Shown: piece after piece, positions 3,041 to 13,544 of the stretch
Position numbering within the stretch: the first letter of the stretch is position 1
Layout: each line of letters starts with the position of its first letter
Sequence record: LC788705.1
Reading direction: 5' to 3' (one strand)
Origin: Escherichia coli phage NG_A1
Length of the DNA stretch: 64,000 nt
The notes under the pieces: model-generated
Told to the model about the DNA's origin: nothing
The model's input: the letters and a program-made list of their open reading frames with translations, nothing else
Databases searched by the model: none
Translations under genes and position numbers: made by a program

Positions 3041-4058
3041 TTACTCGCTTTCGGTGTTAGTGGTAAAAGTAGAAATATCGATACCTTTTACCATTTCATC
3101 AATCATTTCAGCGATGTTAAAACTTTGCACCATTTCCAGCATTGCCGCTTCCATAGCCGCCCCTGCTACCGCTTTCGCCTTTTGGTTATTTGGGGCGTAT
3201 TGGTCAACCGCTACACTCAGCAGGTTAGCAATCACTACTCGACCAATAGGCGTATCGATATAACCTTTGATCATGAATGGTGCTTTTTTAGCCGCTACTT
3301 TCGTAATTTGAGTTAATGCAATTTTACCCGCCTCCAGTTTTGCAGCATTTACAACAGCGGATTTATTGGCGGCAACAATGTTAGCAATCTTGGTCATGGT
3401 GTTTTTTCCTTTGTTTTCAGTAGTTTGAGTGTTAACGCTTTGAGTGTTAGAATTTACAGCATGGTTTTCTACGCTGTCAATAATCTGATCTTCATCTTTC
3501 CAGAAAGAAAAACCAGCGCTTTCTATATCCCCATCATAAATATATGGGTATAGCTCCCGTGGTAACAAAAAATTACCGTCGTCATCAAAAGCCATTATAC
3601 CAGTATATTGAGATCCGTCGTTATCCGGCTTATGCCATCCAGCTGGTAAATACTTCCAGATAACATCTAAAAATCCCTCAATACTAGAAAGTCCGTTTAT
3701 CAGATCAAGCCCAATAAGCTCAAAACCATTTATATTAAATGATTGACGGCCTGAATTGCTATGATACGCAACAATATTATTACCCTGCGCAATAATAAAA
3801 TCGGTATCCGGCCCCGCTCCCCTGCCTGTAAAGATATGGCAATCCCGATTATATATATAAAACTAGCGTTGCCCCTTGCTTATATAATGGTAGAAAACTA
3901 TCCATATCATAGGCGTCATAATCATCAAAAAAGTTTTGATGAATAGTTTCAGCCTTGTTAATAAAATGTTTAATGCTGGTTGACTTGCTACCGTCCAGCA
4001 GGTTGCGCAATGCACCTTTTAAAACGGTGGCATTATCAGGTTTATACAGCCTCATTTG
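3041..4058 (-). CDS. Hypothetical pre-early protein, apparently interrupted by a +1 frameshift near 3849-3865 (fused product ~340 aa)
   Basis: Track ORFs 3849..4199 and 3041..3595 are joined by an 89-codon stop-free, start-less stretch (3596-3862) in the frame of the downstream ORF; strong GAGGGAGG RBS before ATG at 4058. Confidence 0.4.
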
Positions 4059-4320
4059 TTCGGCCTCCCTCGTTAATCGGTGAGTGAATGATATAGATAT
4101 TTGTTCACTAGGGGCAAGAAAAAAGAAAATGTTTTTTATTCCTTGCCTAGCGCCTAGTTTTATGCTAACCGCGCAGCGGTACAGTAAAGAGCAAAACACG
4201 GTGAAGCCACCAGGGCGACTGGTGAAGGCTTTACTTTAATATTACCCCACCGCATTTAGCTCGTTAGAAAGCGTTTTAGGCCGCTTAAAATTAATTGCAG
4301 TCGTTAACACTACCTTTCTA

Positions 4321-9705: not shown

Positions 9706-10440
9706 ATGAATAAAGCTATTATTAATTCTTTCCGTAATTTCCCGCATATTTCCCGCGTCATGATTTGGGATTTAGACGGCACTATCATTAATTCTTTCCA
9801 TCGCGTAGCGCCTTGCTTTGATAGCGAGGGCAATTTAGATTTAAATAAGTATAAAAATGAAGCCTGCAAACATCATTTAATAATGCAAGATTCCTTATTG
9901 CCATTGGTTGAATATATGCGCCAGTGCATGAATGACGCAAATACTTTAAACATTATTTGCACCGCTCGACTGATGAGCAAGTCGGACTATTATTATTTGC
10001 GTAAACAAGGGTTGCGCGGTCGTGGCGATAGCAATATCCGCGTGTTTTCTCGCGATACACTGCATAAATATTTTAAAGCTGATAAAGTTAGCGAGATATA
10101 CCACAGCAAAGACGCAGTATATAAATCTTATTACTTTGAATTATTTAAACAATTATATCCGAACGCTGATTTTACAATGATTGATGATCATAAAGGCGTG
10201 CTATCAGCGGCGGCATCATACGGATTTAAAACGCTGGATGCGCAAGCCGTTAATGATATTCTATCAATAGGTGTAACATTAATAGGTGAAACCTTTATTG
10301 ATGAATCGCTCGACGATGATAATGATTATCAATTCCTAGCTGACCGTTTAAAATTATGCTGGGAAGGTATGACCGAGGAAGAACGCGCAGAATATAGTTG
10401 CAGCCCGCAACAATATATTGAGAAATTAAAAGTTGCCTAA
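9706..10440 (+). CDS. dmp: HAD-superfamily phosphatase, T5 dmp-like 5'-deoxyribonucleotidase (244 aa)
   Basis: HAD motif I IWDLDGTII near the N-terminus; TGGAG RBS; position matches the T5 pre-early set. Confidence 0.65.
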   Translation: MNKAIINSFRNFPHISRVMIWDLDGTIINSFHRVAPCFDSEGNLDLNKYKNEACKHHLIMQDSLLPLVEYMRQCMNDANTLNIICTARLMSKSDYYYLRKQGLRGRGDSNIRVFSRDTLHKYFKADKVSEIYHSKDAVYKSYYFELFKQLYPNADFTMIDDHKGVLSAAASYGFKTLDAQAVNDILSIGVTLIGETFIDESLDDDNDYQFLADRLKLCWEGMTEEERAEYSCSPQQYIEKLKVA

Positions 10441-10505
10441 CAATTAAAGTTGAAATAGTCACGGTGTGTAATGATAACATGCCGTGACTATTAGCTTGCT
10501 AAGTA

Positions 10506-10544
10506 CCGGGCGGTAATGAGACTCATTCTCATCTGGAGGGCCAC
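10506..10544 (+). repeat. ~40-bp element CCGGGCGGTAATGAGACTCATTCTCATCTGGAG, copy 2
   Basis: Direct repeat of the element at 484-530, ~10.0 kb downstream, just after the dmp-like gene. Confidence 0.6.
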
Positions 10545-10591
10545 TGGACACACCTCCATGTGTAATCTTATGAAATTTGGCAAAAAGTCAA

Positions 10592-10837
10592 TTAGCGCAT
10601 AGAAGGGTCATCAAAACGATGTTCAGGTTTAAACTCACGAAATCTCTTCCGCGACGCCCGAGATCCATCCGACCATTCTCGCTCAAACTCCGCACGTTTC
10701 TCGTCAAACTTCCGCTCCCTTTCCGCAATCTCCCGCGTCACTCCCGCAATATATTTACGATGCTTGTTGATTGCCGCAGTTGTCCCGAAAACCCCCGCGA
10801 GTATCCCGATAATAAAAGCAATTACAATACTAAACAT
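10592..10837 (-). CDS. Small membrane-anchored protein (81 aa) with charged C-terminal domain
   Basis: N-terminal TM helix FSIVIAFIIGILAGVFGTTAAI followed by an Arg/Glu-rich tail. Confidence 0.5.
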   Translation of the reverse strand: MFSIVIAFIIGILAGVFGTTAAINKHRKYIAGVTREIAERERKFDEKRAEFEREWSDGSRASRKRFREFKPEHRFDDPSMR

Positions 10838-11024
10838 CTAATTCCCTCTCAATTTGCAGAATACGGGTACTATCACAACGTTGCAGTAGTGCTAGCTTTT
10901 CTAGAGTAACTTGTTGTTGTTTTACCTGAGCTTCTAGAGTTTTTAGGCGAACGTACACGGTGTAAGAAATAATGAAAACTGCCCAGACTAGTATTACTGT
11001 TAGTGTAGCTACTACCTCCATCAT
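10830..11024 (-). CDS. Small membrane-anchored coiled-coil protein (64 aa)
   Basis: N-terminal TM helix, then heptad-like LKTLEAQVKQQQVTLEKLALL. Confidence 0.5.
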   Translation of the reverse strand: MMEVVATLTVILVWAVFIISYTVYVRLKTLEAQVKQQQVTLEKLALLQRCDSTRILQIERELDV

Positions 11025-11128
11025 TTACATTTCTCCGATAGTAAGGTTTCGATTCTAGCTAAGTGATTATCTAAGATACATTGCCCCATAATCACAATCC
11101 CTAGTAATGCAATAATTACCCATTCCAT
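11021..11128 (-). CDS. Small membrane peptide (35 aa)
   Basis: Hand-translated MEWVIIALLGIVIMGQCILDNHLARIETLLSEKCK; TAATG and ATGA overlaps with neighbours. Confidence 0.35.
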   Translation of the reverse strand: MEWVIIALLGIVIMGQCILDNHLARIETLLSEKCK

Positions 11129-11256
11129 TAAATCCATCCCGCCATAGCTGCTAACCAAAAACCTACGAAAATAAAGAATAGGATAGTTCCGAATCCAAAG
11201 CTATTAATCCAGCTATCGTACACTTCTCCACGTCTGCTCTTTCTTTTGTTTGACAT
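11128..11256 (-). CDS. Small membrane peptide (42 aa)
   Basis: Hand-translated MSNKRKSRRGEVYDSWINSFGFGTILFFIFVGFWLAAMAGWI; AGGAG RBS. Confidence 0.4.
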   Translation of the reverse strand: MSNKRKSRRGEVYDSWINSFGFGTILFFIFVGFWLAAMAGWI

Positions 11257-11434
11257 ATCTTTCGTGCTCCTATAAATATGGTATTTTAAAATATTTTATA
11301 ATTTGTGTAATAACCAACCATGCTTGTGACTTCCTAGAAGGACTTCTACTTTTCTTACATAGTGGTTTCTGCCAATATACCATCCAAAAAATAAAAAATT
11401 TAGTTTACTTGGATGTCTTTTTGCTTTATACTAA

Positions 11435-11701
11435 TTACAGGTAGTTAGATTGCTCTAGTTTAAATTTACAATCACCGTATTTAAGATCAAACTGACTGAG
11501 ATCCCACCACCCAAACTTAGTACGGAGCTGTACTACTGGGAAGCGATCTCCCTTAATACGAACTTTTTGAATCTTGAGGCCGTAATGTTCTTCTCCCGCA
11601 CCGCCAAAAGATTTTACAAATCCAGTACAAAATGGTTTGGGAGCAGGTGCACAACCAGATAACATAACTGCGGCAACTAGTGCAATCACAAACTTTTTCA
11701 T
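11435..11701 (-). CDS. llp: Lipoprotein Llp-like, candidate receptor-blocking superinfection-exclusion protein (88 aa)
   Basis: Signal peptide with lipobox LSGC; divergent from and adjacent to the receptor-binding protein gene; own TTGCTT-N17-TATAAT promoter. Confidence 0.7.
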   Translation of the reverse strand: MKKFVIALVAAVMLSGCAPAPKPFCTGFVKSFGGAGEEHYGLKIQKVRIKGDRFPVVQLRTKFGWWDLSQFDLKYGDCKFKLEQSNYL

Positions 11702-11732
11702 ATTTATCTCTCCATTTCTAATTTATGAATCT

Positions 11733-11761
11733 ATTATAGCAAAATAGAGGGATGAAAGCAA
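11733..11761 (-). promoter_or_regulatory. Sigma70-type early promoter for llp (TTGCTT-N17-TATAAT)
   Basis: -35 at 11756-11761 and -10 at 11733-11738 on the minus strand, 17-bp spacer. Confidence 0.65.
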
Positions 11762-11786
11762 ATACATTTTTATAATAGGAGATTAT

Positions 11787-13544
11787 ATGGGTTTTTTCGC
11801 TGGAAAATATAGCGATGGTAAGACCGTACTATCCTTAAATACTGAATCTGGTGGTGACATTAATCGTCACTATAGTCCAAATAATAATAGTATTTTTCAT
11901 AGTGATATGCCATTTGTTCTAGTTGATGGTACTTATGAGGTAGGATTAGGTGATGCCGGGAATGGGTTTTTCGTATGTCAGATGCCTCCTGATATAGTAA
12001 ATATTAAATCTAATGATCCTGGTAGAGTTATACTAACTGCTATTGAAATTAACGGCACTCACAGAGCTTTTCTTAATGGTACTCAGAGTAAAGTTGGTCA
12101 AACTATAGTTGCCACTCAAGCAGATCCCTTTAGATCTTTTGCTAGTGTTTCTCAAACCAGTGGATTTGCCTTTGGTAATAGTCTAGCATCCGGCACTTAT
12201 AATTATAATCCCTCTCTAGGGCACGAAGAATCTATCTCTAGGAGTGGTACAGGGGGTACTACGTTACATAGTACCTACCATGGGATAGTTAGGCCCGGTG
12301 CGGGAGCTCCTGTAGGTATTACTGTTGCAGAAGCTTTTGCACAATTAGGTTTTCCTATTAATAGTAGCACAGTACCTATAGATGGCAATAACCCGTACTA
12401 TTGGGATCCTGGATGGATATCACCTCTAGGAGCAGCGCATAGAGGGCATGATTGGTTTTATGTCTGCAATTCTAATATACGTGGATATGGTGGGGTTAGG
12501 CAAGGGCTCCCAGGTAATGTAAATACTATGTACCACGACGGTGGGAACAGATTTGTTTGTAGGGGATCTACTACTAATCTGGCCAACCAGTCTGGCAATC
12601 CTACGGTAATACAGGACTGGTATAATATAACTCCTACTAAGGTTATTTGGTATGTTCTTAATTTAAGGTACTCTAATAGTGGAATGAGTATTTCAGGCAA
12701 CCCCTTTACTGGTTCTGATATTCTTATATCTCCTTCTAATTTCATAATTAAAGGGGTAAGTCTCCCTAATACCGGGTATAAATTTATAAATCAGAATGCT
12801 TTTGGTAACCTAGGTTACCGTCCTGATATGGAGTATATAGGAAATAACGCAGCGTATACCGGGGTTTTTGGGGATACCACGGCAAGGTGTGAACTTGTAG
12901 GGTCTAGTAATGGAGGAGTATGGTCTCCTGTAGACTATGGTGGAGCTAAATCCCAAATTAGCATTTACAAATTCGGAGCTGGTAAGCAATGGTATGTAAA
13001 CTCTAGGGATAATACTATCGGTAATGAACACGGGGTTGTTTGGGGACCATCAGCAGTTCCATTACGACTTTTTGGTGGAAATGTAGGTAGTTCTTATATG
13101 GGAGATGATATTACTCCCAGCTACCCAGGAACGGGTGATAGATACGTTGGTTTATCAACTATTGGGCTAGGTATACCGGGTGGCAATGCTACAGTAATTC
13201 TTACCACTGAAGTTATATCAGGTAACCTTAACTGTGCAGGTGTTCCTGCTAATACATGGAATAACGGTGTGTTTCAAGTGCAAGGAAGAAGAGCATATAG
13301 CTATAGCGGCGGGGATGCAATATTCCACCAGATTTTAACGCTACCTGTGGGCTATCTAGTACCTTTTCATACTACATCTGCTTTTAGATATACACCTAAC
13401 AATGCTCTAAGTAGAAACAGTTTTATATACACTGTTAAAAATTTAGGAAATGGAAATGTAGAGTTAGGAGTAGTTATGCACGTGAGTTTGGGTAGTGCAG
13501 TTTTCCTACCTAGATTAAGAGTAACAGTTCAACGCCTTACCTAA
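11787..13544 (+). CDS. Receptor-binding tail protein, pb5/Oad-like (585 aa)
   Basis: N-terminus [41 protein letters not shown] resembles the T5 pb5 N-terminus as I recall it; divergent pairing with llp; Gly/Asn/Ser-rich. Confidence 0.6.

Follow-up and report, generated by a model that had tools for sequence, protein, structure and literature searches.

Four small genes of the kind considered here are known from bacteriophage T5, where the llp/oad/dmp sequence from the Heller laboratory (GenBank X75922, 1994) carries orf1 to orf4 annotated downstream of llp. The T5 reference genome (NC_005859) lists them as T5.159 to T5.162, of 129, 108, 195 and 246 nt, each with the remark that it contains a single transmembrane (TM) domain. 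A literature search found no paper naming T5.159-162 in its main text, and the HIDEN-SEQ preprint, to judge from its section headings, has libraries only for T4, Bas37 and Bas54. Several better described systems share individual traits with these genes. T4 Imm and Sp, HK97 gp15 and P22 SieA are small phage inner-membrane proteins, which infected or lysogenic cells make and which are dispensable in the laboratory, and their likeness to the proteins studied here is one of functional analogy only. Two-component spanins such as lambda Rz/Rz1 combine a protein made of a TM helix and a coiled coil with an adjacent gene for an outer-membrane lipoprotein. Finally, bitopic proteins of the LapA, YhcB (ZapG) and FtsL types have a single TM helix that runs on into a charged or coiled helix in the cytoplasm or the periplasm.

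The window, which is the whole stretch of 64,000 nucleotides of Escherichia coli phage NG_A1 that was analysed, contains the corresponding region of a T5-like phage (Tequintavirus), which runs in the opposite direction to the T5 reference; searched by megablast, 10400-11800 matched 384 phage records, with a top identity of 95%. The pre-early genes A1, A2 and dmp of the terminal repeat lie on the plus strand and are followed by four small minus-strand ORFs and llp, and past llp by the plus-strand gene of the receptor-binding protein pb5 (585 aa). A preliminary description of this DNA had reported four overlapping minus-strand ORFs of 42, 35, 64 and 81 aa, and we found their coordinates exactly as it gave them (Table 1). 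ORF1 and ORF2 are joined by TAATG, with a 1-nt overlap, ORF2 and ORF3 by ATGA (4 nt), and ORF3 and ORF4 by ATGTTTAG, with an 8-nt overlap. Shine-Dalgarno-like sequences precede ORF1 (AGGAG), ORF3 (GGAG) and ORF4 (GAGAGGGA). The same description had put the cluster at the junction between the pre-early block and the late module, and the ORF4 stop codon does adjoin the right terminal repeat, at about 42-136 nt from the boundary that the annotations of T5, chee24 and Kenya-K38 give for it. Transferred to the window, this boundary falls at about 10456 from chee24, at about 10530 from Kenya-K38 and at about 10550 from T5, where it lies 42 nt past the T5.162 stop.

Table 1. Features of the llp-ORF1-4 region, in coordinates of the window
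Feature	Coordinates	Strand	Assignment and details
llp early promoter	11721..11761	-	-35 TTGCTT (11761-11756), 17-nt spacer, -10 TATAAT (11738-11733), then AGATTCATAAAT
llp	11435..11701	-	88 aa; signal peptide and LSGC lipobox; 178 nt upstream of ORF1
llp-ORF1 spacer	11257..11434	-	178 nt; weak hairpin and decayed ORF remnant
ORF1	11128..11256	-	42 aa; assigned as orthologue of T5.159/orf1; PHROG 8596, E 3.2e-32
ORF2	11021..11128	-	35 aa from conserved ATG; assigned as orthologue of T5.160/orf2; PHROG 6369, E 8.5e-24
ORF3	10830..11024	-	64 aa; assigned as orthologue of T5.161/orf3; PHROG 5851, E 4.9e-32
ORF4	10592..10837	-	81 aa; assigned as orthologue of T5.162/orf4; PHROG 6447, E 1.6e-47
Right terminal repeat, inner boundary	within 10456..10550		transferred from annotated relatives
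Inverted repeat, 11 bp	10455..10491		ATAGTCACGGC...ACCGTGACTAT; between convergent ORF4 and dmp

By sequence comparison, ORF1-4 are the orthologues of T5 orf1-orf4 and hence already known genes. The two sets agree in lengths, order, overlaps and place between llp and the right terminal repeat, and the proteins are 83-98% identical; they differ in the neighbouring llp, which is of the FhuA type in T5 and of the BF23/DT57C type here, and otherwise in minor sequence differences. The arrangement of llp, four overlapping ORFs and right terminal repeat/dmp was found in T5, chee24, Kenya-K38 and OSYSP, with equal gene lengths. The PHROG matches of the four proteins cover the whole profiles, and these four PHROGs have no specific function assigned. 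Pfam, NCBIfam, PADLOC and PDB sequence searches with ORF1-4 returned nothing above threshold. Homologues of ORF1-3 are variously entered in GenBank as 'tail assembly protein', 'tail fiber protein' or 'receptor blocking protein'; none of the profile searches supports these labels, which look like propagated annotation errors. The dmp gene, too, is sometimes labelled 'polynucleotide kinase' or 'tail assembly protein' in GenBank. We also considered hydrophobic peptides of type I toxin-antitoxin systems and rejected them, as an Rfam search of 10300-11900 at E <= 1 gave no match and there was no protein family match either.

Evolutionary comparison shows that the four ORFs are real genes. The four ORFs, with the junctions described above, were found again in about 25 distinct sequenced relatives, and in the annotated frames dN/dS, computed pairwise by the Nei-Gojobori method, was 0.09 for ORF1, 0.11 for ORF2, 0.30 for ORF3 and 0.24 for ORF4 (aa 1-66), against 0.36-1.5 in the two other frames, the variable sites being mostly third codon positions. 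Purifying selection thus acts in the annotated frames only. Their very short lengths, and the truncation or internal deletion of ORF4 in some relatives, could be taken to mean that the ORFs are spurious or decaying and make no protein product; with selection specific to the annotated frame, ribosome-binding sites and start/stop overlaps conserved, and the cluster kept in about 445 genomes, this idea is hardly credible. For ORF1 and ORF2, a dN/dS near 0.1 argues for some conserved partner.

Each of the four proteins has a single strongly hydrophobic segment of 19 aa, with KD values of 2.1-2.45. The preliminary description had assigned an N-terminal TM helix to all of them, which holds for ORF2-4 and needs correction for ORF1, where a basic head, MSNKRKSRRGEVYDS, with a charge of +5/-2, precedes a C-terminal TM helix at about residues 21-42. 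In ORF2 the N-terminal TM helix is followed by a short amphipathic tail, and the motif GQCxLDNHLAR is invariant. The N-terminal TM helix of ORF3 runs on into a heptad-repeat helix of about 39 aa, whose hydrophobic 3-4 pattern can be read from the sequence (L27, L30, V34, L41, L44, I55, I58, L62), and which ends in an invariant ERELDV; its AlphaFold model is one helix over residues 2-63 (pLDDT 86.5). ORF4 has an N-terminal TM helix continuous with a long helix rich in Arg, Glu and Lys, and its last 14 or so residues are variable; the model is one helix over residues 2-69, followed by a disordered tail (pLDDT 70).

The charges flanking these helices allow a prediction of topology by the positive-inside rule. 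The basic head of ORF1 predicts an N-in orientation, so that this protein would be tail-anchored, with a cytoplasmic head and a C-terminal TM helix. ORF2-4 begin with ME, MME and MFS, that is, with uncharged or acidic N-termini lacking positive charge, and have basic C-flanks, which predicts N-out/C-in; they would expose amphipathic or charged helices of 16, 39 and 58 aa on the cytoplasmic face. The soluble parts of all four proteins are accordingly predicted to be cytoplasmic, with essentially nothing in the periplasm. Predicted cytoplasmic tails speak against direct cooperation with Llp or the receptor and against a spanin role, and the predicted topology favours a site of action inside the inner membrane or on its cytoplasmic side. 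Furthermore, translational coupling suggests a fixed stoichiometry, perhaps of a hetero-oligomer, and a small complex, of the kind put forward for the envelope in the preliminary description, is plausible for the inner membrane.

This simple design attracts weak matches to unrelated families. ORF4 as a LapA domain (PF06305) was rejected: the LapA_dom match (E 1.6e-4) scores 22.0 bits against a Pfam gathering threshold of 28 bits, and it was not reciprocated when 1.84 billion proteins were searched exhaustively with the ORF4 profile. ORF4 as a division protein of the FtsL/FtsB type was rejected as well (E 0.031; 13.9 bits for NF049847 against an NCBIfam cut-off of 50). The weak LapA_dom, FtsL, GspM and holin_2 matches reflect only the generic combination of a TM helix and a coiled coil. 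Homology between ORF2 and ORF3 was not established either (hhalign probability 9%).

The strong promoter upstream of llp, which we take to resemble the T5 early promoter PN25, has counterparts annotated at the equivalent position in T5, and it probably drives ORF1-4 in addition to llp. The spacer between llp and ORF1 folds with a z-score of -0.39, which is not significant, and contains a weak AU-rich hairpin at 11415-11381; this hairpin was rejected as an intrinsic terminator after llp, having no U-run and no significant fold. A putative internal promoter before ORF1 (ATTACA-17-TAAAAT) was also rejected, the -10 element being neither conserved in an alignment of 21 distinct spacers nor present in one of the loci (L009), where it is deleted. 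Past ORF4 the situation is different. The 171 nt around the inverted repeat at 10455-10491 fold with a z-score of -2.89, none of 200 shuffled sequences being as stable, and the repeat corresponds to a 'repeat_region' annotated in X75922. It coincides with the edge of the terminal repeat, as bounded in the relatives, or lies just within it, and is probably a bidirectional terminator; the other copy of the terminal repeat should also carry it. With no conserved promoter or canonical terminator between llp and ORF1 and with a hairpin past ORF4, read-through is the most economical model. We infer that ORF1-4 are likely to be co-transcribed with llp, early, from the llp promoter, on a transcript that would end at the hairpin by the terminal repeat edge; the weak hairpin after llp could attenuate the read-through.

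The spacer also holds a trace of another gene. Positions 11270-11383, read on the minus strand, are a decayed remnant of an acidic ORF of about 104 aa (MQDEEKSFQEP...RAIARIYQIPHL...), which is intact and overlaps the ORF1 start in Epseptimavirus-like relatives (436-750 of the extracted region of L038, 134-460 of L022 and 134-445 of L039). T5 keeps the remnant only.

A tblastn search of phage records detected ORF1 in 447, ORF4 in 443 and ORF3 in 308 of them. Since dmp, at an identity of at least 80%, is present in 441 records, ORF1 and ORF4 are near-universal in the T5-like clade of Escherichia, Salmonella, Shigella, Citrobacter and Yersinia. ORF3 went undetected in about 30% of some 445 records and is absent from 7 of 29 loci. 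ORF1-4 were not detected in family members from Klebsiella, Vibrio, Proteus and Aeromonas that still carry dmp. Database homologues of the cluster come exclusively from T5-like phage contigs: an exhaustive HMMER search of 1.84 billion representative proteins with a profile of the ORF4 family found only the T5-like family, and the cluster had no match, prophages included, in 5,426 complete E. coli genomes and 72,556 plasmids. Short records labelled as Listeria phages, such as 'Listeria phage LM 4-14-1' (OR849067, 2.6 kb), or as Campylobacter phages carry llp and the cluster at about 99% identity to Salmonella and E. coli T5-like phages, and are probably contaminated or mislabelled.

Within the clade the gene content varies. 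Where ORF3 is missing, the translational coupling is restored between ORF2 and ORF4, and in one locus (L039) it is ORF2 that is missing. Two loci (L026 and L032) have a 155-nt insertion between ORF1 and ORF2 which encodes a 51-aa tandem paralogue of ORF2 (MEWVIIGIFVLL...RIETLLEERK; hhalign 95.6%), and is a gene duplication inside the micro-protein cluster. Among relatives, ORF4 keeps residues 1-67 and takes several alternative C-termini, and truncated forms and in-frame internal deletions occur. In a CRISPRi-ART screen of T5, T5.159-162 were all scored 'Not Fit', and so were the late-region neighbours T5.151, T5.152 and T5.154 (PMC11879866, source data); the latter scores indicate a limited sensitivity of the screen, which makes it weak evidence for dispensability. 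The best reading of the natural losses of ORF3 or ORF2, of the ORF4 truncations and in-frame deletions and, with less weight, of the 'Not Fit' scores is that the cluster is dispensable.

Insertions have a hot spot at the right end of the genome. The 3' end of ORF4 has repeatedly received genes for HNH-type homing endonucleases (157-184 aa), which replace its last 14 or so codons (L010, L012, L013, L015, L024, L029, L032 and L042), and two further loci have such inserts between llp and ORF1 (L008 and L022); the window itself has no insert. Directly past ORF4, two other loci have an extra ORF for a soluble protein of 67-71 aa (MKEFGQFKLTQEDLEKMGITQ...; 1149-1352 of the extracted region of L005 and 1015-1230 of L006), coupled to an alternative ORF4 C-terminus, ...RMSESGDKPVDRRSS, and this ORF is not present in the window.

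Outside the clade, the Klebsiella Sugarlandvirus KpGranit encodes two proteins, of 74 and 153 aa, between the gene of the receptor-binding protein (RBP) and the right terminal repeat (3372-4060 of the extracted region L045). They resemble ORF1-4 in genomic position and in having an N-terminal TM helix (with the start MEVVIGALVLL) followed by a coiled coil, and differ in number (two genes instead of four) and in their setting, since Sugarlandviruses have no llp-like lipoprotein gene beside the RBP gene. The 153-aa protein has a Ser-rich tail. Homology of the 74-aa protein to ORF3 and of the 153-aa protein to ORF4 was not established (hhalign probabilities of 17% and 1%). No positional analogues were found in the Vibrio, Aeromonas and Proteus relatives.

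The preliminary description had suggested that the cluster extends the superinfection exclusion function of llp, and this part of it is not supported. The llp gene of the window matches PHROG 1119 (E 1.7e-26) and Pfam LPAM_1, is 98% identical to llp of DT571/2, whose group has been assigned to BtuB (PMC10644984), and can be classified as a receptor-blocking lipoprotein of the BF23/DT57C (BtuB) type. ORF1-4 have no lipobox and no match to PHROG 1119 or LPAM_1, so that llp is the only gene here with Llp/Cor characteristics. Identity across the cluster is 80-100% in T5 and in other phages with an llp that tblastn does not match and a pb5 of about 30% identity. In the spacer alignment, T5-type and BF23-type phages become homologous again only some 45-60 nt before ORF1 begins; the llp/pb5 cassette has therefore been swapped as a unit without ORF1-4, in agreement with the modularity described in PMC10644984. 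Moreover, the llp family of the window occurs in 401 records, fewer than the cluster, and ORF3 is absent from four loci (L006, L013, L017 and L030) although their llp is 99-100% identical. These results show that the cluster and the llp/pb5 receptor cassette can be separated genetically, and that the cluster is independent of the type of llp. Adjacency to llp on the same strand, and probably on the same early transcript, is what a contribution of ORF1-4 to Llp-mediated receptor blocking has in its favour. Besides the conservation next to unrelated cassettes and the loss of ORF3 beside an unchanged llp, however, Llp expressed alone reproduces the exclusion phenotypes (literature summarised in PMC9586334), the predicted topology holds ORF1-4 away from the outer membrane, which their presumed cytoplasmic parts could not reach, and the Klebsiella phages have two proteins of the same design at this position without any llp. 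Such a contribution is very improbable.

Taken together, the explanation that we favour, with a low confidence of roughly 0.3, is that ORF1-4, as orthologues of T5 orf1-orf4, are inner-membrane micro-proteins that make up an early accessory module, one that can be separated from Llp and may have a protective role. It is a translationally coupled operon of single-pass proteins, dispensable within the Escherichia/Salmonella T5-like clade and most likely transcribed early, as read-through from the llp promoter. That these proteins protect the infected cell at the inner membrane independently of the receptor, for example by making it harder for superinfecting T5-like phages to form a channel or bring in their DNA, is a tentative suggestion; such protection would complement that of Llp, which blocks a single outer-membrane receptor. 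It is drawn by guilt by association only, from the probable early transcript shared with llp and from the membrane location, and it competes with roles in host takeover, anti-defence and lysis timing that fit the same facts. More doubtful is the specific form in which ORF1-4 make up a hetero-oligomeric inner-membrane complex that acts as a second, receptor-independent layer of exclusion, or reseals or guards the membrane after the entry of the phage's own DNA. The Imm/Sp, gp15 and SieA families are absent among the PHROG and Pfam matches of ORF1-4 at E <= 1.

Among the competing roles, that of host takeover or anti-defence, where each TM micro-protein would bind a host inner-membrane protein, at its TM segments or on its cytoplasmic face, inhibit it and have no part in exclusion, is possible, on grounds as tentative as those for protection. 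The targets could lie in division, transport or FtsH-type proteolysis, or could be a membrane-embedded abortive-infection effector. The architecture and predicted cytoplasmic orientation are consistent with such a role; the very conserved TM helix of ORF1 and the GQCxLDNHLAR motif of ORF2 suggest a specific conserved partner; and accessory character, presence/absence variation and a tandem paralogue of ORF2 in some phages are in keeping with it, as are the 'Not Fit' scores in a laboratory K-12 host, which are expected for conditionally useful genes. However, the PADLOC, Pfam and NCBIfam searches gave no similarity above threshold, the anti-defence island of T5/BF23 is located elsewhere in the genome, and there is no known host partner. 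A role in lysis, as antiholins or regulators of lysis timing, or as a miniature spanin-like set working with the lipoprotein Llp, is unlikely. A TM helix with a coiled coil is the design of i-spanins, antiholins and holins, an outer-membrane lipoprotein gene lies directly upstream, and the 74-aa Klebsiella analogue has a weak holin_2 match (E 0.068, with 13.4 bits where the cut-off is 50). Yet an i-spanin has an N-in TM helix and a long periplasmic coiled coil, whereas the charge pattern of ORF2-4 predicts C-in tails, which at 16-58 aa would also be far too short to bridge the periplasm. No ORF of the cluster has the lipobox of an o-spanin; the adjacent lipoprotein is the receptor blocker Llp, of known and different function and structure, and there is no lysis cassette, with no endolysin or holin gene nearby and no holin family match of ORF1-4 in Pfam, NCBIfam or PHROG. 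The T5 holin and endolysin genes are presumably elsewhere, in the early region. In addition, the cluster persists beside non-homologous Llp proteins, the Klebsiella positional analogues do without llp, the Sw2 and Stitch records, which include ribosome-binding-site features, label the genes only as hypothetical or membrane proteins, and the T5 knock-downs were scored 'Not Fit'.

The cluster is thus a re-discovery of T5 genes annotated since 1994, to which our analysis adds no function. T5 is a model phage, yet after 30 years these four strongly conserved micro-proteins still count as hypothetical. Should they serve to guard the inner membrane, or act on a conserved host membrane protein, phage-host biology would gain a new small-protein mechanism; second-layer exclusion by ORF1-4, if true, would define a new family of exclusion proteins. 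In that case it might also be relevant to therapeutic cocktails of T5-like phages, where phages using different receptors may exclude one another.
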